Shown in pieces: positions 1-55,373 of a DNA stretch of 64,000 nt (positions are counted from its first letter, which is position 1; each line of letters begins with the position of its first letter). The notes under the pieces are model-generated. The model had not been told where the DNA came from, ran no database searches, and worked only from the letters and a program-made list of their open reading frames with translations. The DNA comes from Escherichia phage vB_Eco_F31, in the sequence record OP870147.1; one strand, written 5' to 3'. Position numbers and translations under genes: made by a program.

Positions 1-131
1 TGAACCAAGCCATCAAAAACGCCTTTACTATTTACTTTGTATGTTACTTTGGGATTTTTACCTTCTTCGATAGCAGCTTTCTGTTCCGCAGATAATGTAA
101 CTTCAGTGATAAACTCCTGATATGTTTTCAT
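1..131 (-). CDS. internal protein-like, 3' end outside window (N-terminus MKTYQEFITEVTLSAEQK...)
   Basis: Manual translation of minus strand from ATG at 131; N-terminus matches T4 internal-protein capsid targeting sequence; ORF runs off left edge. Confidence 0.6.
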   Translation of the reverse strand, partial: MKTYQEFITEVTLSAEQKAAIEEGKNPKVTYKVNSKGVFDGLV

Positions 132-156
132 TTTGTTCCTATTGTTTTAATTTATG

Positions 157-471
157 TTATTCTTTAGGGAAGTTTTTAGAGTATGCATCATAAAGTTTAT
201 TACCAATACGACGGAAGACTTTAGCTGCAAAACGGTTTTCAGGGTTTTTAATCATGATTTGCATCATGTAAGTTCCTGCATCCGAAAGAGCTTCTTCATA
301 GTACCCATTAATTTCTTTAAGAGTCCTACGTTTACCACCAGGACCATCAACAGTAATTTTCCATTTACCTGTAGAAGTGCGGCTCGGTGGCTCAACTTGT
401 TCAATCCAAATATAACCACCTTCAACGCGTTGGTTGGCGGATTCTGCAATAAATTCTTTATACGTTTTCAT
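157..471 (-). CDS. internal protein (CTS-bearing, MKTYKEFIAE...)
   Basis: ORF track 104 aa; N-terminal MKTYxEFIxE capsid-targeting motif as in T4 IPI/IPII/IPIII; early promoter upstream. Confidence 0.75.
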   Translation of the reverse strand: MKTYKEFIAESANQRVEGGYIWIEQVEPPSRTSTGKWKITVDGPGGKRRTLKEINGYYEEALSDAGTYMMQIMIKNPENRFAAKVFRRIGNKLYDAYSKNFPKE

Positions 472-502
472 TTTTTGTTTCCTTGTTTGTTTTGATAGAG
501 TA

Positions 503-532
503 ATTATACCATATTAATACTTAAGCGTAAAC
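503..532 (-). promoter_or_regulatory. early promoter (GTTTAC-N18-TATAAT, minus strand)
   Basis: T4 early-promoter pattern upstream of IP gene 157..471. Confidence 0.6.
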
Positions 533-535
533 AAT

Positions 536-796
536 TTAAGCTTTACCGCCAGAAATAATTCCGAAGTTGTTAAAATCGTATCCAATATCGTCAACATCCA
601 CTTTAGGACTTGCTACAACATAAGCAATTTCACTACGTTTTGCATAGGTGTTGATTTCTTTACCATCGCCACCTAAGAAAGAATACCCATTACGTTTTAA
701 TGAGCCAAAGTCTTCGGCATCACCAATGAAAGCTTTAACTTTAAATTTAGGACATTTGGCATCTGCTTCAATGATAAATTCTTGATACATTTTCAT
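536..796 (-). CDS. internal protein (CTS-bearing, MKMYQEFIIE...)
   Basis: ORF track 86 aa; CTS-like N-terminus. Confidence 0.7.
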   Translation of the reverse strand: MKMYQEFIIEADAKCPKFKVKAFIGDAEDFGSLKRNGYSFLGGDGKEINTYAKRSEIAYVVASPKVDVDDIGYDFNNFGIISGGKA

Positions 797-802
797 TTTT
801 CC

Positions 803-1216
803 TTAGTAAATTGATTTACCATAGTATTTGTACCAAGTCGGACGTTGAGCAATTTTTTCATCTAAGCGTGCTTGACTTATCGCAATGGACGCTTCGGACG
901 GGACATAATTATTACGAAATTCGGCAGGGATGTCGGAAATATCCTGGACAGTCGTGTCCTTGATTTTGAAACCACGTTTCAAACATTCGGCTATTAGCTC
1001 GATTTGACGTAAACGTAAAAATTCGAGTTTGTCGTAAAAGAATGTTACGTGACCTGTGCCTAAGATAAATGTTGGAGAGATTTTAAAATCTTTTACACGT
1101 TTACCATTCTGAACATGTTTACGGACTGCACCAAATACGCGTGGTAATTCACGATACTCAGCCATAAGATGTTGGTCGGACAGTTCAGAAACAAGTGTTA
1201 AATTGATACGAGTCAT
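803..1216 (-). CDS. denV: endonuclease V (pyrimidine dimer DNA glycosylase/AP lyase)
   Basis: Translation [12 protein letters not shown]...[16 protein letters not shown] matches T4 endonuclease V; start taken at ATG 1216 preceded by GGAGGA (ORF track begins at upstream TTG). Confidence 0.93.
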
Positions 1217-1220
1217 AATT

Positions 1221-1273
1221 TCCTCCAAGTAGTTGATAGATGTATAGTATCAAAGTCCTTGGAGGAAGTAAAC
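1221..1273 (-). promoter_or_regulatory. early promoter (GTTTAC-N18-TACTAT) nested in a 9-bp inverted repeat that pairs the denV Shine-Dalgarno
   Basis: Arms TCCTCCAAG (1221-1229) and CTTGGAGGA (1258-1266); -10 lies in the loop. Confidence 0.55.
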
Positions 1274-1274
1274 A

Positions 1275-1556
1275 CTATTTTTCTGAAGCGCCTGAAATAT
1301 ATTTTTCAAGACGTTGTTTCATTAGCGAGCCGTTCTTAGCGATTTCTTCTGGTTTATCGCACATACGCAACAAGGCTTCAAGCTTAGCGATATCGCTGGT
1401 ACGTTCAAATTTGCGAGTATCTATCTTACTAGCAAGTTCAGAAATACGTGCTAATAGACTTTCGGCTTCAACCAAAGCTGCACCTAGCTTAGTTGCAAAT
1501 GTGTCAGTAGCTTCGTTAAGAATAGATTCTGATAAAAATTCACTATATGTTTTCAT
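1275..1556 (-). CDS. internal protein (CTS-bearing, [10 protein letters not shown]...)
   Basis: ORF track frame; start at internal ATG giving MKTY N-terminus; ATGA overlap with lysozyme stop. Confidence 0.7.
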
Positions 1557-2041
1557 ATATACGCTTTCCAAGTTCCTGTTTTAAATGTTGAGATTACGCG
1601 TTTCGCGCGATTAGGTGTCTGACGATACCATTTAGATTGGGCTAGATTTACTGCCGCTTCATCCCAACGTTTCTGTTGAAGCATACGAAGAGAATTAGTA
1701 AAACCGGCGACGCCTGATACACCCATTTGGAAGACCATATTGACCAATGCACACCGACGAACTGCATCTAAAGAATCATATACCGGTTTAAGTTTAGCAT
1801 TACCCAAGATTCCGCGGACGGCTTTATCAACGTCTTCATTAAATAGCTTTTCAGCCTCATCAAGGGTAATTGTACCGTTGCATTTACGTCCGATCATTCT
1901 GTCAAGTTCAGCTTTAGCTACGGCTAAAGACGGATTCTTTGTTACTAAATGGCCAATGCCAATCGTCCAAAAACCTTCAGTGTCTTTGTATAAAGTCAGT
2001 CTAAGACCTTCGTCATTACGAAGCATTTCAAATATATTCAT
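1553..2041 (-). CDS. e: lysozyme (endolysin)
   Basis: [15 protein letters not shown]...[12 protein letters not shown]... near-identical in pattern to T4 lysozyme; start at ATG 2041 (track starts at upstream GTG). Confidence 0.95.
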
Positions 2042-2043
2042 AA

Positions 2044-2067
2044 TACCTCCCACGTTTATAGGAGGTA
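2044..2067 (-). promoter_or_regulatory. gene e regulatory hairpin: SD-sequestering 7-bp inverted repeat with late-promoter-like TATAAACG in the loop
   Basis: Arms TACCTCC (2044-2050) and GGAGGTA (2061-2067); same architecture as the known T4 gene e control. Confidence 0.55.
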
Positions 2068-2075
2068 TTTATTAC

Positions 2076-2534
2076 TTATAGGAGTGTAGTGAGCACCTTA
2101 TATAATGATTTGCCCATTACATATTCCCATTGAGAAGGTTTAATTAAAGCGAATGCATCAAATTCAGGAATCTGTCGTCCGTCTGGGAATGTATGATAGG
2201 AATTACAAACACTGTTTCTGAATTGCTCGTGCTCTACAGGGATGGTATATAGGAACAGATGAATATTCTTATTGTCTGAGTAATGATGTTCACCTAGGTC
2301 TTTCAGGAAGGCAGGGTCGTATTGTGTAAACCCAGTTTCTTCTTCGCATTCACGAATAGCGGCTTCAATAGGAGATTCGCCAGGTTCGACACGGCCTTTA
2401 GGAATATCCCACCTATGAGCTAATGCACCTTTAGAACGAGAACCAGTTACACGCCCCATGAATAATTCTTTATCTTCGGTAAGGAAAATAATACCGGCTG
2501 ATAGTTCTTTCACTTTATTTTTCTTACTCATCAT
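2076..2534 (-). CDS. nudE: Nudix hydrolase
   Basis: Nudix box GRVEPGESPIEAAIRECEEETGF present; position after e as in T4. Confidence 0.88.
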   Translation of the reverse strand: MMSKKNKVKELSAGIIFLTEDKELFMGRVTGSRSKGALAHRWDIPKGRVEPGESPIEAAIRECEEETGFTQYDPAFLKDLGEHHYSDNKNIHLFLYTIPVEHEQFRNSVCNSYHTFPDGRQIPEFDAFALIKPSQWEYVMGKSLYKVLTTLL

Positions 2535-2760
2535 CTCGGTCCCATGATTTGGCCATTAATTCGGACATAAATTCTTCAATGCGCGTTTCTTTAGATGGAC
2601 TTTCACTATTAGAGACCGCAAGTTTGTAATCTGCAATAGGACAGAACATATCAAGGTCCATATTAAGGTCGTCTTTGATTTTTTCTTCTGACACATCTTT
2701 ATCGTATGTGTACAGATAACTATCACATGATTCTGATTTAATGTAAATTGCTATACTCAT
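2524..2760 (-). CDS. hypothetical protein
   Basis: ORF track 2524..2775; ATG at 2760 forms ATGA overlap with upstream stop; no recognisable domain. Confidence 0.45.
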   Translation of the reverse strand: MSIAIYIKSESCDSYLYTYDKDVSEEKIKDDLNMDLDMFCPIADYKLAVSNSESPSKETRIEEFMSELMAKSWDRDDE

Positions 2761-3248
2761 CTCAAATTCCTGCATTCGGTAATAAAACGTTCAACTTCAT
2801 TATTCTTGGCCTTTATCTTGTCTTTACGTTCCTGTAAACTACTTTTAACAAGATTAATAATGATGCCTACAGTACCGCCGCCAATGATGCCGCCAACAAC
2901 ACTTATGATAATAGATGCTAATAAGATAGCAATAATATCAACAAAACCGAAAGAACTCACCTTAGTACTAAAAAACCATACCGACGGTACAAATATAATC
3001 CATCCTGTTATCCATTGGCACTTATTGAAAAACTTTTCAAGCTCAGCTTGAGTTGTTCGTATTACTTCATCGATAGGTTGATATCCATTAATGTATCTGT
3101 TCACGATAATACCTGCTGGCTGGTCGATTTTAAATTCTTGGCAAATATGTTTCACTAAGTAGGATGGACATCCTGTCCAATCTACTGAATAGTACGAAAT
3201 ACCTTCATTGCCGTCGTCAATATTAGACCAATATGTTTTGTTAATCAT
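2757..3248 (-). CDS. small membrane protein, FIxECR-tail family
   Basis: 163 aa, long hydrophobic segment, C-terminal ...ERFITECRNLR. Confidence 0.55.
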   Translation of the reverse strand: MINKTYWSNIDDGNEGISYYSVDWTGCPSYLVKHICQEFKIDQPAGIIVNRYINGYQPIDEVIRTTQAELEKFFNKCQWITGWIIFVPSVWFFSTKVSSFGFVDIIAILLASIIISVVGGIIGGGTVGIIINLVKSSLQERKDKIKAKNNEVERFITECRNLR

Positions 3249-3934
3249 TACCAGCCTTCCATAGGGAATTCCAGATAAACTTGGGCATTGACACGAATTT
3301 CATTGGTAATCTTTTTAACTCGGTCTGTATTACGAGATACACGTCCGAACCAACGCCATCCGTTACTAATTGCACGAGAACCAGTGTGCCATGTTTGCCA
3401 ATCAAACTGAAGAAGAGTACGATCTGGAGCTTCCCATTTCTCTAGTTCACCTTTTTCAATTTTTTCGAGGACTTCTTTGTGCCACTGGCGATAGATAAGT
3501 TCGCCATCAGGAATCTGACTGAACTCTGCAGTTCCTGTTGCAAAATGAGTAGGACACACGTCAGCGTTAACAAGACCAAGAATATGTTCAGAATGGTAAC
3601 GAGGGTTGTCATAGTCAGGTTGTCCTGCAGTAATAAAGTGTTGACCAACTGGAATATCAGGGCGAGGAACATCGTCATGGTGGTATCCAGGAATAGCAGG
3701 ATACCAACCAGGCATCAGCATATGGACTCGTGAATCAAATACAACATGTTGATTAGTCCAATCAATTGGGAGATTGGCAATAAAGCTACGAGTGATTGAG
3801 CCACCATTATCCCAAGCAAAACCCAAATCACAATTAAAGAACATTGGTTCATTTTTGATTCGGTCATTTTGTACGTTATGTGCAAAACTACCAACTGCAC
3901 GAGCTTGACTATTAAAAGTTTTAGAACTATTCAT
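3248..3934 (-). CDS. hypothetical protein
   Basis: 228 aa ORF, ATG with GAGGAAA SD; His/Asp-rich segment GYHHDD; function not assignable by eye. Confidence 0.55.
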   Translation of the reverse strand: MNSSKTFNSQARAVGSFAHNVQNDRIKNEPMFFNCDLGFAWDNGGSITRSFIANLPIDWTNQHVVFDSRVHMLMPGWYPAIPGYHHDDVPRPDIPVGQHFITAGQPDYDNPRYHSEHILGLVNADVCPTHFATGTAEFSQIPDGELIYRQWHKEVLEKIEKGELEKWEAPDRTLLQFDWQTWHTGSRAISNGWRWFGRVSRNTDRVKKITNEIRVNAQVYLEFPMEGW

Positions 3935-3935
3935 A

Positions 3936-4241
3936 TTATTTTCCTCGACATTCTTTAATGAAATTTTCTAGATTGGTAGATTCAATAGCTTTTTTACGAG
4001 CTTCTGCATGTTCTTCTTCAGACAATTTACATTTATAATTAACCCAGACATTATGGTCGAAACTAGTCGTGGCATATAATAACAATGCTCCAACGAATAG
4101 CAAAAACGGCGATAAGAATACAAAACCAGGAACACCATCCATATCGTAAGCCTTTTGTAATACTGCAACAGAAAGAGCTGCGTAAAAAGGTGATGCAAAT
4201 ATTGTTAAAAGACCAATTCGGTTGGTTTCGCCTAATTTCAT
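3936..4241 (-). CDS. small membrane protein, FIxECR-tail family
   Basis: 101 aa, two hydrophobic segments, C-terminal ...ENFIKECRGK; early promoter module upstream. Confidence 0.55.
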   Translation of the reverse strand: MKLGETNRIGLLTIFASPFYAALSVAVLQKAYDMDGVPGFVFLSPFLLFVGALLLYATTSFDHNVWVNYKCKLSEEEHAEARKKAIESTNLENFIKECRGK

Positions 4242-4299
4242 AATATTCTCCTCATGTTTTAATAGGACTACTATAATATAGCCCTATCAGTTTGTACAC

Positions 4300-4500
4300 T
4301 TATTTTGACATTTCTTCGATGTCACGACGATACCCATCACGAACTTCACGAAGAGCTTCAAGGCCACACATAGGCTCGATACCAGTAATGTGAACTTGAT
4401 TAATCTGATACTCTACATCTTCTAACTGAGCGAAAACATAACGACGTTCTGCTGCACAACCAGGTTTAGCTTTACCGAAACGTTTATTCAAAGTAGTCAT
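4300..4500 (-). CDS. hypothetical protein
   Basis: ORF track 4300..4518; ATG 4500 preferred because preceded by GGAG SD and downstream of the early promoter. Confidence 0.45.
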   Translation of the reverse strand: MTTLNKRFGKAKPGCAAERRYVFAQLEDVEYQINQVHITGIEPMCGLEALREVRDGYRRDIEEMSK

Positions 4501-4538
4501 TTTTATATCTCCATTCACTCATTTGTTTTGATAGGTCT

Positions 4539-4568
4539 ATAGTATCAACAACTACAGACCTTGTAAAC
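4539..4568 (-). promoter_or_regulatory. early promoter (GTTTAC-N18-TACTAT) with flanking inverted repeat AGGTCT/AGACCT
   Basis: T4 early-promoter pattern upstream of 4300..4500. Confidence 0.5.
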
Positions 4569-4580
4569 TGTTTTGTGAAA

Positions 4581-5537
4581 TTATTTGAAAGGTTTTACCA
4601 TATGAAAGTTTTGTTTGAAACGCTTGACGTAATCGTCGTGTCCTAAGCTTTGGTACATACTTACTACTTTGCTATAATTTTCCCAAGCGAACTCACGGAA
4701 CCATCCTGATGTGATTGATGTACAGACCTTTTCAAGGGCCATCATAAAACTATCACGTGGATGGATTTTAAAGTCGTTAGGAATCTGTGAACGTTCAAGA
4801 GCTAATACACAAGCTTCTTCATATACACCGGCTAATTTAACCATTTCTGGTAACGATTCGAACTTCTCGCGTGAGGTCATGACTTCAGAACCGTCTTTCA
4901 TATAAAACTTATAAGCAGGCTGGTCAGTTAGTGCAATGGCTTCATGGATAGTATCATGGTCATACGTATAGATGTCATCTTTAAAGAACGCACTTTTAGA
5001 AGTGTCAAGAACTGGGTGAGCATAATTCAAGGTTTCTTTCTGGCGTTTCAGCATAATTTCAGTAAGTTCATCGTTCAGTGTAACACCTTTACCACGAAGA
5101 TACTGAATATGGTTCATAGTCTTTAAAAAGAATGGATTATTTTTCTTGAAACGATGAGACATCTTAATTGCAAGACATATCTCAGGAGTTGCCCAGTAAA
5201 ACCCGTTCAAACGGTCTTTAGTCAAATTTTTCTTGGAGTATTTTAAAAGGTCATAAGAAGACGTGAAATCTTCAGGAGTGAGTTCACCGACTAGTTCGCG
5301 AACGTTAGTGATAGCCGGAACGATGTATGCTTCAAAATGAGTTTCGCGTCCATTATGGAAGCATTTGAAAACTTGGACATCAGGGTTATCTTGGTGAACA
5401 TATACACCCATCATTTGATTTTTGAATGCATTCCAAGAACCTTGGTCCGCAATAAAGTCCCAGTCACTATTTTTAATAGCGCTAGAATCAATAAGACCGT
5501 GATAGTGAAGTGCACGAGAACCAATAACTAACATCAT
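4581..5537 (-). CDS. hypothetical protein with possible nucleotidyltransferase-like N-terminus
   Basis: 318 aa; N-terminal IGSRALHYHG...SDWDF resembles a GS...DxD signature (weak, unverified). Confidence 0.5.
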   Translation of the reverse strand: MMLVIGSRALHYHGLIDSSAIKNSDWDFIADQGSWNAFKNQMMGVYVHQDNPDVQVFKCFHNGRETHFEAYIVPAITNVRELVGELTPEDFTSSYDLLKYSKKNLTKDRLNGFYWATPEICLAIKMSHRFKKNNPFFLKTMNHIQYLRGKGVTLNDELTEIMLKRQKETLNYAHPVLDTSKSAFFKDDIYTYDHDTIHEAIALTDQPAYKFYMKDGSEVMTSREKFESLPEMVKLAGVYEEACVLALERSQIPNDFKIHPRDSFMMALEKVCTSITSGWFREFAWENYSKVVSMYQSLGHDDYVKRFKQNFHMVKPFK

Positions 5538-5565
5538 AATATTTTCCTCGGATTAATTCATTAAC

Positions 5566-5805
5566 TTAAATTTCACGACATGCGATATTATATTCATCCC
5601 AGAGGTCATCATGTGAAGCCTCTACCAATGGAACGATTGTACCGTTTATGTCTTCATTATAAGGGCAAATTGTACAGTGCGCATCTTCGAATCGGATGCC
5701 TTTGTGTTCAGATTTTTTATAACGCATATCGAATATCTTTGCAAACTTTTCACGAGTAATGGTTTTACCAACCACTTTGGTTCCGATACTTTCGTAATAA
5801 ATCAT
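5566..5805 (-). CDS. hypothetical small protein with CxxC motif
   Basis: ORF track 5566..5817; ATG 5805 preceded by GGAG; contains HCTICPY. Confidence 0.45.
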   Translation of the reverse strand: MIYYESIGTKVVGKTITREKFAKIFDMRYKKSEHKGIRFEDAHCTICPYNEDINGTIVPLVEASHDDLWDEYNIACREI

Positions 5806-5822
5806 TGTGGACTCCATTTGTT

Positions 5823-5863
5823 TTGATAGGACTACTATAACATAGCCCTATCTTGTTGTAAAC
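5823..5863 (-). promoter_or_regulatory. early promoter module (GTTTAC + TA-rich -10) with repeated element GATAGGACTACTATAACATAGCCCTATC
   Basis: Near-identical to the modules at 4262-4288 and 12443-12470. Confidence 0.5.
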
Positions 5864-5867
5864 TGTT

Positions 5868-6065
5868 TTAGCAAGAATAACTAGATGATACCCAGCCTTG
5901 AACAGTGATATTATTGTGGGATAATGAGATCGCGTCCTGGAGATTCAGACCTGCGTTATCTTCAATCCATAATGTAACTTCTTCGCGTTCTTCTGTTGCA
6001 ATTTGGAACAGGTTTTCCAGAGCAGCTACTGCCGTACGTACAGCACAATCTAATTCACGAGACAT
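5868..6065 (-). CDS. small protein, GWVxSSxxC C-terminal family (paralog 3)
   Basis: 65 aa ending ...VQGWVSSSYSC. Confidence 0.5.
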   Translation of the reverse strand: MSRELDCAVRTAVAALENLFQIATEEREEVTLWIEDNAGLNLQDAISLSHNNITVQGWVSSSYSC

Positions 6066-7018: not shown

Positions 7019-7392
7019 CTTATTTCCTTAACGAATTCCATAGCTTCTTCATATTCATACTTTTTAACAGCTTCATCATACTGAGCTTGGGCTTTTGCGC
7101 ACTGAACTTTCCACTCACGAACTCGAGCTCTGTGATGACGGCCTTGGTGCCAATATCCTGCCCAATTAATAGGCATTAATAAAAACGGTACAATAAGTGG
7201 TGCGACGAACATTAATGAAAACGCTGCATCAGACGATATAACTTTATTGGAATCTAAAACAGCTCCTATAATCATAAAGATTAAAAATGCTAAAGCTAAA
7301 ATAGGACCAAATAGTACTTCGTTTGGGATTAATTTACGTTTGTATTCGTATGCCCAGGGCTTAATTGGCATGTACAGGGTTGGCTTTGACAT
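6997..7392 (-). CDS. membrane protein (hypothetical)
   Basis: ORF track 6997..7422; ATG 7392 (MSKPTLY...) chosen; hydrophobic segments; C-terminal ...EFVKEIRCK. Confidence 0.45.
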   Translation of the reverse strand: MSKPTLYMPIKPWAYEYKRKLIPNEVLFGPILALAFLIFMIIGAVLDSNKVISSDAAFSLMFVAPLIVPFLLMPINWAGYWHQGRHHRARVREWKVQCAKAQAQYDEAVKKYEYEEAMEFVKEIRCKSLNS

Positions 7393-7963
7393 ATTCTCTA
7401 CATTCCATAATAAATTGCTCAAGGATTAAATTGTTAGTGAAATTAGGACTAACAACCATAGTTTCATAAAGCGCATCAATAGCACTTAAAGCATCAACTC
7501 TCTTAAGCAAAGGCTTGCCTTCATACATAGTTTCAGAATCGACGATTAAAGTGAAGTAGTATTTTTTATTATTGACCAGAACTTCTGTATCAATATAAAA
7601 CATGTTAGACCTCAGAAGCTTATCTCTAAAACCATAATAATCTTCAGAGCGTTCGCTGATATATTCCCATTCGGTGTTTAAACAACAAACAGACCACGTA
7701 GGAGCAACGAAATCAGTGAATCTAATATCATGGTCTGCAACTAGTTTAGCAATAGCTCCGATATCATGAATCATAATACCTGGGGCTAATAAAGATTTTC
7801 TGCTATGGCTAGCCGTTTTCTCGGTGGTCTCATAAGAAGACGACCAGTACCATTTACGTCCAGTTGCAACATATCGTAATGAATCAACTAAAGACGTAGG
7901 TGGATTTACCTTATCTCGGAACTCTTCGAACATTGAGTCAATATCATTATTTTGGTTTCGCAT
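7361..7963 (-). CDS. hypothetical protein (C-terminal EQFIMECRE motif)
   Basis: ORF track 7361..7984; ATG 7963 preceded by AAGGAG. Confidence 0.5.
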   Translation of the reverse strand: MRNQNNDIDSMFEEFRDKVNPPTSLVDSLRYVATGRKWYWSSSYETTEKTASHSRKSLLAPGIMIHDIGAIAKLVADHDIRFTDFVAPTWSVCCLNTEWEYISERSEDYYGFRDKLLRSNMFYIDTEVLVNNKKYYFTLIVDSETMYEGKPLLKRVDALSAIDALYETMVVSPNFTNNLILEQFIMECREYVKANPVHAN

Positions 7964-7980
7964 GTTAACTCCTTTATTAT

Positions 7981-8004
7981 CCAAAAGGAGGACCGGAGTC
8001 CTCC
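7981..8004 (-). terminator. hairpin GGAGGAC-CGGA-GTCCTCC + U-run (minus strand) after 8013..8606
   Basis: 7-bp GC-rich stem followed by TTTTGG on the transcribed strand. Confidence 0.45.
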
Positions 8005-8012
8005 GTATTATT

Positions 8013-8606
8013 TTATTTCAAAGAGTTAATATATTCTTGTACATCAGCAGAAGTGGTTTCGACACCAGCTGGAGTGCCATTGAACGTTTCAACACGAGTT
8101 AGAGTGTCTTCGATATCAACCTTAGTCAGTGCAGCGATTTCAATTACATCATCGGCCGTAGAGATACCAAGGGCATTAGCTGCTCGAGTTTCACGAATGT
8201 ATTCGAGTTTGATTGCCAGATTCTGCCGAGCATCATCAAGTTCAACCACCTTACGAGCAATTTCAATTCGCATAGCGGCATACCCGTCAGCTTTTGTATT
8301 AAGTTGTTCGGCAGTTCGACGATACAGAAGACCAAGCTTAGCATGCATAGTAACATCTTGTCCTTCGGCCAGGAGCTTACGAATTTCACGTTCCTTAGAA
8401 GCGGCTTGCTTGTTCTTTTCATTAACAAGTTCGCGAATACGTTTTTCTTCATTAATAGATTTAACAGAAGCCGTTTTTAGTTCTTTGATTTGGGTAATCA
8501 ACTTATCTGCAGCTGCGTTATACTGTTCTTCGACAGTCAGATTTTTAGCCATAGCAGTACCCAGTTTAGTGCGGATGAATTCAACAAGTTTCTTCAGTGT
8601 GTTCAT
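8013..8606 (-). CDS. coiled-coil protein (hypothetical; possibly PspA/IM30-like, unverified)
   Basis: about 198 aa, highly charged K/E/A/R-rich heptad-like sequence; ATG 8606. Confidence 0.45.
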
Positions 8607-9183: not shown

Positions 9184-9489
9184 TTAATTTTTCCAACTTA
9201 ACAACTTGTAGTGTCCTTCATTCATACGTGGTTTATCCCAAGAAATACTAATATATGATTCACCGTCAATAGAAGTCGCCGGGTTTTTCTCTACCGTAAG
9301 ACCTTCACTTTCCAGCCATTCAATAGTATTTGAGCATAAATCAGAAGAACACCTCATCGGGAACCGGCAAGATTTTTCACCTTTAGCCGCAGTGTTATAC
9401 ATCTTTTCTAAAATACGCTTTTGCACGTTTTTAAAAATAGTTTCAGCAGATTCTTCAGATTTTTTATTCAGTTCAGTGTAAAGACTCAT
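9184..9489 (-). CDS. hypothetical protein
   Basis: 101 aa ORF, GAGGAG SD, early promoter upstream. Confidence 0.55.
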   Translation of the reverse strand: MSLYTELNKKSEESAETIFKNVQKRILEKMYNTAAKGEKSCRFPMRCSSDLCSNTIEWLESEGLTVEKNPATSIDGESYISISWDKPRMNEGHYKLLSWKN

Positions 9490-9517
9490 AATATTCTCCT
9501 CTGTGGTTGATAAGTCT

Positions 9518-9546
9518 ATAGTATCATGTCCTTAGAAGAAGTAAAC
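9518..9546 (-). promoter_or_regulatory. early promoter (GTTTAC-N17-TACTAT, minus strand)
   Basis: Upstream of 9184..9489, downstream of a terminator. Confidence 0.55.
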
Positions 9547-15838: not shown

Positions 15839-16288
15839 TTACCCCTTGTATCCGAGTTTTCTAAGACCATCTTCGGTTAGAACTCGAAATTTTATATTTC
15901 TCTTTTCAGCAACAGCTGAGGCAGCTTTCCATTTGTCACAGTTCACAGACCACGTGTAGATTTCATTCATATAACGTTTCTTAGCCGCAGTTGTAAGATT
16001 CACTGGTTTAATAGGTGGCTGAGTTTCTTTCTTTGGTTTTATTTCTACAAAAAACTCTTGGCCTGATGCATCTTTCATCCATATGTCCATATAGTATCGA
16101 CGTTTCTTACCTTCAGCATTACAAAAATATGGAATTACTGCTGTTTCACTACCCCATGCAATAATTTCTGGATTTTTATCCAACCATTCGAAAAAGAATT
16201 TTTCCCAGTTTGAACGATACGTTATTTTGGTATGGTCTCCACGGTATTTTTTTAAATTTTTTGGGACCCATTTACCAGAGTAGGCCAT
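15839..16288 (-). CDS. 4: gp4 head completion protein
   Basis: ORF track frame; ATG 16288 gives a 150-aa protein, preceded by AAGGAGGA. Confidence 0.85.
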
Positions 16289-16299
16289 GTTGTCCTCCT

Positions 16300-16307
16300 T
16301 ATAAATA
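16300..16307 (+). promoter_or_regulatory. late promoter TATAAATA for genes 53-5
   Basis: Exact octamer 43 nt upstream of gene 53 start; back-to-back with the gene 4 promoter. Confidence 0.65.
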
Positions 16308-16314
16308 GTATTAT

Positions 16315-16322
16315 TATTTATA
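16315..16322 (-). promoter_or_regulatory. late promoter TATAAATA (minus strand) for gene 4
   Basis: Exact octamer 27 nt upstream of gene 4 ATG. Confidence 0.65.
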
Positions 16323-16349
16323 CCAATTTCATATTGGAAGGAGACTATC

Positions 16350-53548: not shown

Positions 53549-53947
53549 TTACACTCTATTGCTTGACGCTAACTGAAGTTTAATTTGTTCAATATCGTCA
53601 GGGTTGTCTACGACCGAAAATCTAATCTCTACTATAACCGTATAGTCATCATATACTGGCGTTACACTTACAGAAAGTTTGTCGATGCGTGGCTCATAGT
53701 TACGAACAGCTGCCTGGATATTACGCTCAATCGTATCGGCTGTAAGTGGTGTCATGTTCTCGAAAAGTTCATCGACCAAATCACATCCAAATTCAGGGTC
53801 GAAGGGGCGTGAGCCTTTTCTAGTTGTCACTATGCCAAGAAGACTATTTTTAATAGAACGAAGTCCTACAGAACGAGCAACGTCCTTGTTCCAATCCATA
53901 CGCATTTCTGGGTCGATATCTGAATAAAGTTTATTGATATTAGACAT
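53549..53947 (-). CDS. 25: gp25 baseplate wedge protein
   Basis: 132 aa, same length as T4 gp25. Confidence 0.92.
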   Translation of the reverse strand: MSNINKLYSDIDPEMRMDWNKDVARSVGLRSIKNSLLGIVTTRKGSRPFDPEFGCDLVDELFENMTPLTADTIERNIQAAVRNYEPRIDKLSVSVTPVYDDYTVIVEIRFSVVDNPDDIEQIKLQLASSNRV

Positions 53948-54573
53948 TATAGTAACTCAAAGAATTCTTTGAGGCCTCGTATTGTGTGAACGTGTGACGC
54001 CCCACATTTGGGACATTTAATAGGGGTTGCTAGATAAATTGATGGTGATACTAAAAGATTTTTAATATTGATCATGTCATCTTCCGTTATAAGGCCATAA
54101 AGGTCGTTTATTTCTGCTTCAGTTAAATCTTCAACAGGGATGGACTCTCCATTGACAAAAACGGCCTCAATACATGAAGCAATCATTAATGCGATATTTT
54201 TATCGTCAAATAATTTAGGTTGACGGAACTTAATTTTAATACCGCTGAACGAATACCAGGGATCGGCCTGTTCATCTAATTGAGTGTGCAATAAATTCAT
54301 ATAGACTTGAAATGAATGCCCACAGGAACAATTCCAGGTGTGTTCTTGATTCACTTCACCTAATGAATGGGCCCACAGATTTACCAACAATAGCTCGGCT
54401 TCTTGTTTAGTCAAGTTTTTAGCGTTAGAGCAATTAGTGATAATATTGTTCACTGCTGATTCAATAGTACCGGTAGCCCGTGCACCTATGAGTCCTAAAT
54501 ATTCTTTTAAAGTAAAGGCTCTACAATTCACTTCTTTATCGCCTAAACGTACGGTAAACGTATATTTGTACAT
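53947..54573 (-). CDS. 26: gp26 baseplate hub protein
   Basis: 208 aa, same length as T4 gp26. Confidence 0.9.
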   Translation of the reverse strand: MYKYTFTVRLGDKEVNCRAFTLKEYLGLIGARATGTIESAVNNIITNCSNAKNLTKQEAELLLVNLWAHSLGEVNQEHTWNCSCGHSFQVYMNLLHTQLDEQADPWYSFSGIKIKFRQPKLFDDKNIALMIASCIEAVFVNGESIPVEDLTEAEINDLYGLITEDDMINIKNLLVSPSIYLATPIKCPKCGASHVHTIRGLKEFFELL

Positions 54574-54591
54574 GTTAACTCCTTTATTGTG

Positions 54592-54599
54592 TATTTATA
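54592..54599 (-). promoter_or_regulatory. late promoter TATAAATA (minus strand) for genes 26-25
   Basis: Exact octamer about 19 nt upstream of gene 26 ATG; overlaps the divergent gene 51 promoter. Confidence 0.6.
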
Positions 54600-54603
54600 A
54601 ATA
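54596..54603 (+). promoter_or_regulatory. late promoter TATAAATA for gene 51
   Basis: Exact octamer 18 nt upstream of gene 51 ATG. Confidence 0.6.
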
Positions 54604-54620
54604 ATAGAAAAGGAGTAATT

Positions 54621-55373
54621 ATGGCTAATATAATTCGTTGTAAATTACCGGATGGTGTTCATCGTTTTAAGCCGTTCACTGTGGCGGATTATAGAGACTT
54701 TTTACTAGTTAGAAATGATATCGAACATCGTTCGCCGCAAGAACAAAAAGAAATAATTGCCGATCTGATTGATGATTATTTTGGCGAGTACCCTAAAACA
54801 TGGCAACCATTTATATTCCTGCAAGTTTTTGCAGGCTCTATAGGCAAAACAAAAGTTCCCGTTATTTTCACTTGCCCTAAATGCTCTAAAGAAAAAACTG
54901 CACCATTTGAGATATATCAAAAAGAACTAGTCGAACCTGAACTTGATGTTGCTGGTATAAAAATACGTTTTTCTTTCCCTGAAAAGTTTTATGACAACAA
55001 GGCATTAATGATAAGTGAAAACATAAAAGAAATATATTATAATGACAAATGGTACCCATGGAATGATTTGACTGAAGAGAACCAAATCCAAGTAATAGAA
55101 GCAATAGACATTGACTCGCTCGAGAAGGTTATTGCTTCTATGAACCCTATTAATTTGACCCTTAGATTAGGTTGTTGTGAACGTCATGTTAAAACATATA
55201 CTGATATCTTAGAGGTTTTTAAATTGTTAGTTAACCCTGATGAGATTTTTACATTCTATCAGATAAACCATTCACTGGTAAAGAGTCAATACACATTGGA
55301 TTCTATTATGCAAATGATTCCTGTTGAACGTGGTATTGCTTTAACATTAGTAGAAAAGGACCATAAAAAATGA
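54621..55373 (+). CDS. 51: gp51 baseplate hub assembly catalyst
   Basis: 250 aa; synteny 51-27-28-29-48-54. Confidence 0.9.

Follow-up and report, generated by a model that had tools for sequence, protein, structure and literature searches.

How could a gene that probably lies in the path of transcripts made for its neighbours be translated from its own messenger and stay silent in theirs? This question is raised by denV, the gene for endonuclease V, in a stretch of 64,000 nucleotides (nt) from Escherichia phage vB_Eco_F31 (sequence record OP870147.1), the whole of which is called the window here. On the minus strand of the window, both denV and the lysozyme gene e begin just downstream of an inverted repeat whose 3′ arm contains the Shine–Dalgarno (SD) sequence and whose 5′ arm is its complement, an anti-SD, and at both genes a promoter-like sequence is so placed that the transcript predicted to start from it lacks the 5′ arm. 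We conclude that denV and e are probably promoter-gated translational switches, in which the start of the transcript would decide whether the SD is free.

The initial annotation of this locus had described a perfect inverted repeat of 9 base pairs (bp) upstream of denV, pairing the denV SD with an upstream anti-SD, and had placed the -10 element of an early promoter in its 28-nt loop. The two halves, TCCTCCAAG (1221-1229) and CTTGGAGGA (1258-1266), are indeed exact reverse complements, and the perfect repeat is one base longer than first described: 10 bp, formed by 1220-1229 with 1258-1267, around a loop of 28 nt. The SD, GGAGG, is separated from the AUG (1216) by 5 nt, and its pairing with the anti-SD is seen both in the sequence and in RNAfold predictions. 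RNA reading through from upstream folds at -19.9 kcal/mol (z = -3.5, with 0/200 shuffles as good), in a range of -19.9 to -23.5 kcal/mol, and the RNA from the predicted start folds at -2.1 kcal/mol, no better than shuffles. The size of the repeat is unremarkable in itself: perfect inverted repeats of at least 9 bp with loops of 3-40 nt number 15 in the 64 kilobases, as against 10.9 +/- 3.8 in dinucleotide shuffles. The repeat by itself is not significant, and its placement is what stands out; since its size occurs at chance rate, the case rests on position and conservation. As to position, denV ranks first and e second among the 92 called genes of the window in SD occlusion, with an SD unpaired probability of ~0.00 for both genes and a median of 0.44 for the 92.

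The minus strand at the denV promoter reads cagaaaaatagtGTTTACttcctccaaggactTTGaTACTATacatctATCAACtacttggaggaaattATG, and the promoter itself, cagaaaaatagtGTTTAC, displays the features of a T4-type early promoter: GTTTAC, 18 nt to TACTAT, and a preceding TGa. Its -35 element begins one base past the codon that ends the preceding gene. Transcription is predicted to start at A1237, which falls within the hairpin loop, and would give a 21-nt leader without the 5′ arm. The promoter resembles, down to the ...ATCAAC with which transcription would begin, eight further early-type promoters of the window; these nine, all on the minus strand (61257, 45639, 12836, 12481, 9546, 5863, 4568, 1273 and 532), each stand 21-32 nt ahead of a gene start. 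This resemblance, together with a position that is fixed in relatives (see below), bears out the early promoter with its -10 element in the loop. When the region upstream of each of the nine starts is paired with the respective SD, denV yields a helix of 10 bp, the next best promoter 6.5 bp and the others 4-6 bp; only denV has a long helix, so these promoters do not as a rule carry an anti-SD in the spacer. The likeness of the nine goes well beyond the hexamers: besides GTTTAC and TG(a/t)TA(c/t)(t/a)(a/g)T, they have an initial transcribed block in common, (A/T)GNCCTATCAA(A/C), and they look like copies of one cassette.

Conservation was assessed on denV loci collected from IMG/VR, among which 29 distinct Straboviridae upstream regions were compared. 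The promoter holds a constant position in 29/29, with the -35 element at -54..-59 and the predicted start at -19..-24 from denV, and in 27/29 the gene upstream is an internal-head-protein gene (with an MKTY.EF N-terminus), in 2/29 it is e; the stop codon of this gene touches or runs into the -35 element. In 23/29 regions, the SD region can form a helix of at least 9 bp, and the 5′ arm of this helix is situated upstream of, or no more than 3 nt from, the predicted start. Folding energies across these loci are -16 to -37 kcal/mol for read-through RNA and 0 to -3.4 kcal/mol for promoter-initiated RNA. The hairpin is not special to the phage of the window: T4 denV has the same layout with another stem, GTTTACaTCTCCTGTAGgtaTGaTACTAT...CTACAGGAGA, and folds at -20.8 kcal/mol as read-through and -0.7 kcal/mol as promoter-initiated RNA. 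At least 10 different stem sequences occur among the relatives, and they fall into two geometries. In the first, the 5′ arm lies in the promoter spacer; this arrangement is found in RB69-like phages (CCUCCAAG/CUUGGAGG), in T4 and JS98-like phages, the JS98 label being tentative (CUCCUGUAG/CUACAGGAG), in CC31-like phages, also a tentative label (CUCCGUUUG/CAAACGGAG), and in Citrobacter phage Merlin (CUCCUGUG/CACAGGAG). In the second, the arm covers the -10 element and discriminator, as in IME341/IME08 (UAGUGUUCUC/GAGAACACUA), Serratia phage CHI14 (GAUGUCUUCC/GGAGGACAUC), Pectobacterium phage PM2 (AUGUCCUCC/GGAGGACAU) and further relatives. In both geometries, the promoter's own predicted transcript lacks the 5′ arm. 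Loci L006 (tentatively JS98) and L007 (IME341/IME08) encode DenV proteins that are 91-92% identical, yet their hairpins differ in geometry; the geometry can thus switch between close relatives, probably through recombination of the leader.

The arms of one phage pair better with each other than with those of another. The median helix is 10 bp for a phage's own arms and 6 bp for arms swapped between phages; a length of 9 bp or more is attained by 79% of own-arm pairs, by 7% of those swapped and, when the upstream segment is shuffled, by 1.8%. Covariation was measured on 14 sequences of the spacer class, aligned by their invariant CUCC/GGAG cores. Changes on both sides were found at 7/11 pairs, amounting to 32 double-sided change cells compared with 13.2 +/- 2.7 in shuffles, none of which (0/500) reached 32; the proportion of paired cells is 88%, compared with 39-50% for slid partners, and the covariation score of 0.48 drops to 0.04-0.14 with partners slid. 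The denV helix appears to be maintained by selection, with compensatory changes in relatives. These data bear directly on the possibility that the helix has no function, being either a chance repeat or a by-product of shuffled early-promoter cassettes with pyrimidine-rich spacers. The near-chance number of 9-10 bp repeats fits this possibility, as do the long segments that the early promoters share and the spacer of the 9546 promoter, which is pyrimidine-rich and pairs weakly with its SD (6.5 bp). Against it, at least 10 stems keep pairing across genera, own arms outperform swapped and shuffled ones, the double-sided changes make chance a poor account of the covariation, and the other eight early promoters of the window have no such helix. 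We regard an absence of function as very improbable.

A stable, GC-containing stem straight after a stop codon could also be an intrinsic terminator or attenuator that ends the internal-protein or e transcripts ahead of denV. An intrinsic terminator combines a GC stem, a short loop and a U-run, and as a candidate for the denV structure it was rejected: the loop is 28 nt long and no U-run follows the stem, which is succeeded by GGAGGAAAUUAUG in the window and by GGAGAACACUAAAAUG in T4. Nor did a terminator scan detect a single terminator-like site on the minus strand from 2100 to 1200, between e and denV. Moreover, the internal-protein gene downstream of denV would need read-through, and the terminators that jumbo phages have at the same position look quite different. 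Termination is thus, in our judgement, exceedingly unlikely. In four jumbo-phage denV loci (121Q-like; L025, L027, L031 and L033), an intrinsic terminator overlaps the -35 element and the SD is not occluded. The jumbo-phage module (~1435-1470) is made of an A-tract, a GC stem and a U-tract, for example AAAAGGGUUGACUUCGGUCAGCCCUUUUU, and its 5′ arm contains the -35 element TTGAC of the denV promoter. The jumbo phages are a natural contrast to the window, in that transcription is stopped there and the translational block is absent.

The spacing between the upstream gene and the stem was considered with respect to translational coupling, in which a ribosome ending at the UAG of that gene (1277..1275) would open the stem, so that re-initiation at denV or entry of a 30S subunit there becomes possible. 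The stop codon lies 5-10 nt before the 5′ arm in the spacer-arm class (7 nt in the window), where the first 1-3 pairs would be within reach of a ribosome that terminates. However, the stem is still stable after the loss of 1-3 of its 10 pairs, and the gap widens to 23-32 nt in the second geometry, to 30 nt in L038 and to 73 nt in L035, beyond the reach of a ribosome, with the helix kept. In addition, the conserved position of the arm is relative to the promoter start and not to the stop codon. Coupling is, on this evidence, an unlikely account of the hairpin.

At e, the initial annotation had given a 7-bp repeat that pairs the SD, with a late-promoter-like sequence, TATAAACG, in its loop, and had taken the arrangement to be the known mechanism of T4 gene e. 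The last attribution agrees with what has been described for T4 and its relatives (PMC3014915). The repeat exists and does pair the SD, and it is longer: 9 bp are perfect (2042-2050 with 2061-2069) and, as RNA, G.U pairs lengthen the stem to 12 bp, closed by the loop AAAC (RNAfold). Read-through RNA folds at -16.3 kcal/mol (z = -4.3, 0/200 shuffles as good) and RNA from the predicted start at -1.0 kcal/mol, no better than shuffles. The comparison of read-through with promoter-initiated RNA, which the initial annotation had proposed as a check, therefore gives the same result at denV and e: the former is folded and the latter open. Across 24 distinct loci the e hairpin is retained with several different stems (for example AAUACCUCC, AUACCCCU and CUCCUAUC), and its helix, like that of denV, shows compensatory changes in relatives. 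The placement of the promoter in the loop probably does not stand. A motif of the form (A/G/T)ATAAATA that abuts or overlaps the 5′ arm is conserved in 24/24 distinct e loci, and the corresponding sequence of the window is AATAAATA; the loop motif is not conserved. Counted across the window, TATAAATA stands upstream of gene starts in 11/18 cases, AATAAATA in 4/9 and TATAAACN in 2/26, the last being at the level of the positional background (4.4%). A start from TATAAACG would, in addition, land inside the e SD, and a start from AATAAATA, predicted at ~2060, would leave just 3 weak arm pairs. The loop motif is probably not a functional e late promoter, and the e late transcripts most likely originate from AATAAATA at 2073..2066.

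The sequences, folds, promoter motifs, conservation and covariation described above suggest a mechanism that can be followed from the 5′ end of the RNA. RNA entering denV from upstream would carry the anti-SD arm UUCCUCCAAG; such RNAs would comprise early read-through and late transcripts from the e promoter that bear e and the internal-protein gene. In them, UUCCUCCAAG would pair with CUUGGAGGAA, the denV SD would be buried in a 10-bp helix of ~-20 kcal/mol, and loading of the 30S subunit would be blocked. The sigma-70-type early promoter of denV would instead start RNA at about A1237, past the arm, and the unstructured 21-nt leader would be translated. DenV synthesis would thus be tied to the activity of its own early promoter, and denV would remain silent within the abundant transcripts that cross it on their way to the next internal-protein gene. 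Gene e would be the mirror case: its read-through RNA would be occluded, and late transcripts, beginning where the 5′ arm ends, would be translated. The arm-less transcripts, from 1237 for denV and from ~2060 for e, are predicted from motif and geometry. It is, in our estimation, an evenly balanced proposition that denV is an inverted e switch, so far unrecognised as regulatory, in which an early gene amid internal-head-protein and lysozyme genes is translated from its early promoter only, with the anti-SD encoded in promoter DNA, and that this switch has been kept across Tevenvirinae genera through repeated turnover of the stem and in two interchangeable geometries.

Transcription across denV is suggested by the distribution of late motifs. 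On the minus strand of 1-6000, the only copy of (T/A/G)ATAAATA is the e motif, with none near denV, and no late motif for the gene 796..536 was found in or after denV. Late expression of the genes 1556..1275 and 796..536 would have to cross denV, because the sole late motif on that strand of 1-6000 is at e. The internal-head-protein gene 1556..1275 would accordingly be the source of read-through from upstream promoters into denV. This need for read-through also favours a protective role, in which the helix would hide the denV GGAG from RegB or RNase E and keep the polycistronic RNA intact, with silencing as a by-product. RegB cuts GGAG in SDs and is inhibited by secondary structure (PMC1702504, PMC3014915). 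Nevertheless, the GGAG of T4 denV resists RegB in vivo through its 3′ context, a C at position 9 (PMC1702504), and the hairpin is kept anyway; RegB acts mainly on early mRNAs; and a stable helix over the SD blocks initiation regardless, so that protection would add to the promoter-gated switch and not replace it. Compared with the RegB site GGAGRAYARAA (PMC1702504), denV of the window reads GGAG-GAAAUUA, which fits at positions 5, 6, 8 and 11 and not at 7, 9 and 10, and has no C. As a replacement for the switch, protection has little likelihood. Work on T4 also bears on the open form of the leader. T4 denV mRNA is present 3 min after infection, and the transcript of the mutant denV[AU] is cut efficiently in vivo by RegB, which secondary structure inhibits (PMC1702504); the early T4 denV mRNA therefore has an accessible GGAG, as the promoter-gated switch predicts, and this is the one piece of experimental support found for it at denV. 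The authors of that study treated denV RNA as unstructured (PMC1702504), which suggests that the read-through helix was apparently not in their view.

Several points weigh against a promoter-gated switch at denV. The promoter agrees with the E. coli consensus TTGACA/TATAAT at 8/12 positions and was missed by a generic E. coli scan, and for this reason it and its kin were found with a T4-specific pattern. Where transcription starts, that it reads through and that the two RNAs differ in translation are inferred from sequence. The helix is not universal: in six of the 29 regions (L012, L015, L018, L019, L026 and L035) it is weak, at 5-6.5 bp. For covariation, the sequences had to be aligned manually on CUCC/GGAG, as MAFFT lost the register of the arms across stem classes. 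The T4 internal-protein genes upstream of denV, ipII and ipIII, have early-type promoter-like sequences and no TATAAATA within 80 nt, so the late read-through part is less clear in T4 than in the window. Finally, what the phage would gain by keeping denV silent in read-through RNA is a matter of conjecture; a block may be needed because DenV would otherwise be produced from all long transcripts, the abundant late ones among them.

The features of the locus are collected in the table. This region is 97-98.5% identical to RB69-type phages (Mosigvirus).

Features of the e–denV region of the window, in transcription order from nudE downstream
Feature	Coordinates	Strand	Basis or remark
nudE	2534..2076	-	First in transcription order of the genes listed
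Late-promoter-like motif AATAAATA	2066..2073	-	3′ end overlaps the e 5′ arm; predicted late start ~2060
e 5′ arm AAUACCUCCUAU	2058..2069	-	Perfect part 2069..2061
Loop motif of the initial annotation, TATAAACG	2053..2060	-	Counterpart of the second TATAAATA of T4; degenerate, not conserved
e 3′ arm GUGGGAGGUAUU	2042..2053	-	Holds SD GGAGG (2050..2046); directly abuts AUG at 2041
e, T4-type lysozyme, 162 amino acids	2041..1553	-	Open reading frame call, homology, PHROG match
Internal-head-protein gene upstream of denV	1556..1275	-	N-terminus MKTYSEF; phrog_3499, 2e-46
denV -35 element GTTTAC	1268..1273	-	T4 early-promoter form; after A-rich stretch CAGAAAAATAGT
denV 5′ arm (anti-SD) UUCCUCCAAG	1258..1267	-	Within promoter spacer; repeat search, RNA fold, covariation
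denV extended -10 TGaTACTAT	1244..1252	-	In hairpin loop; TGATACTAT motif recurs in other early-type promoters of the window
denV predicted start A1237 (A of AUCAAC)	1237	-	7 nt past the -10 hexamer; from promoter geometry
denV 3′ arm CUUGGAGGAA	1220..1229	-	Holds SD GGAGG (1226..1222); repeat, fold, SD-occlusion ranking
denV, endonuclease V, 137 amino acids	803..1216	-	99% identical to RB69 DenV; phrog_1183, 3e-62
Second internal-head-protein gene	536..796	-	6 nt past denV stop; phrog_2667, 1e-20
Third gene with MKTY.EF-type N-terminus	157..471	-	PHROG match only to a family of unknown function

In 1-4000, every gene is on the minus strand, and the genes around e and denV are closely packed or overlapping; the ATG of the internal-head-protein gene 1556..1275 overlaps the e stop codon (ATGA, 1553-1556). 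The motif MK(T/M)Y.EF at the start of three small genes flanking denV is the capsid-targeting N-terminus typical of T4 internal proteins, and two of the three (1556..1275 and 796..536) have internal-head-protein PHROG matches. In T4 (L001), strong upstream hairpins surround an early-type -10 element at ipII (3720-3800) and ipIII (4417-4497), both on the minus strand; the ipII hairpin, ACUCCUAGAAUUGUGA...UCACAAUUCUAGGA, folds at -21.6 kcal/mol, and the hairpins of both genes leave the SD uncovered. The leader of T4 ipIII and that of denV in locus L019 are homologous, and promoter–hairpin cassettes therefore seem to move between genes of the cluster.

Other SDs of the window can also pair with upstream sequence. 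At 9490-9546 (minus strand), upstream of an open reading frame of 101 amino acids (9184..9489) with PHROG matches of unknown function only, the arrangement looks like a weaker denV-type case: the promoter at 9546 reads GTTTAC-TTCTTCTAAGG...TGATACTAT, its pyrimidine spacer can pair with the SD AGAGGAGAA over 7 bp including G.U, and the SD unpaired probability is 0.016 (rank 7/92). Upstream of gene 7361..7963, at 7964-8040 (minus strand), a terminator-like hairpin GGAGGACuccgGUCCUCC is followed by UUUU, and the SD of this gene, AAGGAG, also pairs with upstream AACUCUUU (rank 6/92). Two divergent gene pairs have a shared intergenic inverted repeat, at 54574-54620 (between 53947..54573 on the minus and 54621..55373 on the plus strand) and at 16289-16349 (between 15839..16288 on the minus strand and a plus-strand open reading frame from 16350). 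In both, each SD (AAGGAG) is complementary to that of its partner, a perfect TATAAATA lies in the loop on both strands, and the genes rank 3rd, 8th, 12th and 15th of 92 in SD occlusion; this pairing arises because of the divergent layout itself.

The initial annotation had presented the use of such a hairpin at denV as new, a claim that holds in part. The T4 reviews consulted name e, soc, 49 and I-TevI as cases, with denV absent from their lists (PMC3014915), and the supplement of a T4 differential RNA sequencing preprint with 150 T4 start sites (bioRxiv 10.1101/2024.04.04.588121) has, in the part available, no entries for denV, ipII or ipIII. A full-text literature search, beyond whose reach the older primary T4 papers lie, returned no paper describing a denV hairpin. 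Valerie et al. are reported to have noted, in 1986, potential stem-loops preceding ipIII, ipII and denV in T4. The denV structure itself has thus probably been seen before, and its novelty is only partly safe. If the proposed switch is real, the mechanism also operates at an early gene, with its temporal logic reversed. The switch would likewise explain how the gene for a low-abundance repair enzyme can sit between highly expressed head-protein genes without terminators, and it would mean that, in T4-type phages, genes of different temporal classes can alternate along one strand through gene-by-gene translational insulation and not through terminators. On this model, denV that is cloned together with its own leader and placed behind a vector promoter should be poorly translated, and the switch would offer T4 engineers a compact early-only expression cassette. 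The at least 10 stem variants in two geometries also form a comparative set for the co-evolution of promoters and RNA structure.

The closest known system is T4 e, whose translational control was reported by McPheeters et al. in 1986, as summarised in PMC3014915, with similar leaders predicted in relatives. The e leader of the window is its direct orthologue: in read-through RNA, an upstream arm pairs with the SD and onwards as far as the AUG, the late promoter or promoters are so placed that late transcripts would lack the 5′ arm, and the fold, calculated alike for both phages, is as stable as that of T4 (-16 to -19 kcal/mol compared with -15 to -16 kcal/mol). T4 e has two perfect copies of TATAAATA, at -34 and -21, whereas the window has a distal AATAAATA and a degenerate proximal TATAAACG, and the 12-bp stem with its AAAC loop is longer in the window than in T4. 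The e hairpin is already known, and the present analysis adds only the corrected promoter assignment. SD-sequestering hairpins that are released by late or middle promoter-proximal starts have also been described for T4 soc, 49 and I-TevI and for Aeh1 mobE; differing translation of the two transcript forms has, among hairpins of this kind, been shown for T4 e only (PMC3014915). As in soc, 49, I-TevI and mobE, at denV the choice of the 5′ end would decide whether an SD-occluding helix forms. The releasing promoter of those genes is described as late, and it delays the translation of genes that are also transcribed early; gene e of the window shares this trait through the variant AATAAATA, a late promoter being a description of the known members and not of the mechanism. 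At denV, in contrast, no late (T/A/G)ATAAATA lies nearby, the predicted releasing promoter belongs to the sigma-70 early class and carries the arm within its spacer or across its -10 element, and translation would be limited to the early period and prevented in RNAs that are later or longer. Like T4-type early promoters, that of denV has GTTTAC, TGa-TACTAT, an upstream A-tract and AUCAAC; unlike the other early-type promoters of the window, it alone has a spacer that is a 10-nt complement of the downstream SD region. With the terminator–promoter module of 121Q-like phages, denV shares an apparent insulation from upstream transcription and a promoter of its own; the insulation of that module is transcriptional, by a terminator that overlaps the -35 element and leaves the SD free, and that of denV in the window would be by the SD hairpin. 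By its sequence features, the denV hairpin is of the same kind as those of T4 e, soc, 49 and I-TevI, with a timing that is predicted to be inverted and an arm that is built into the promoter.

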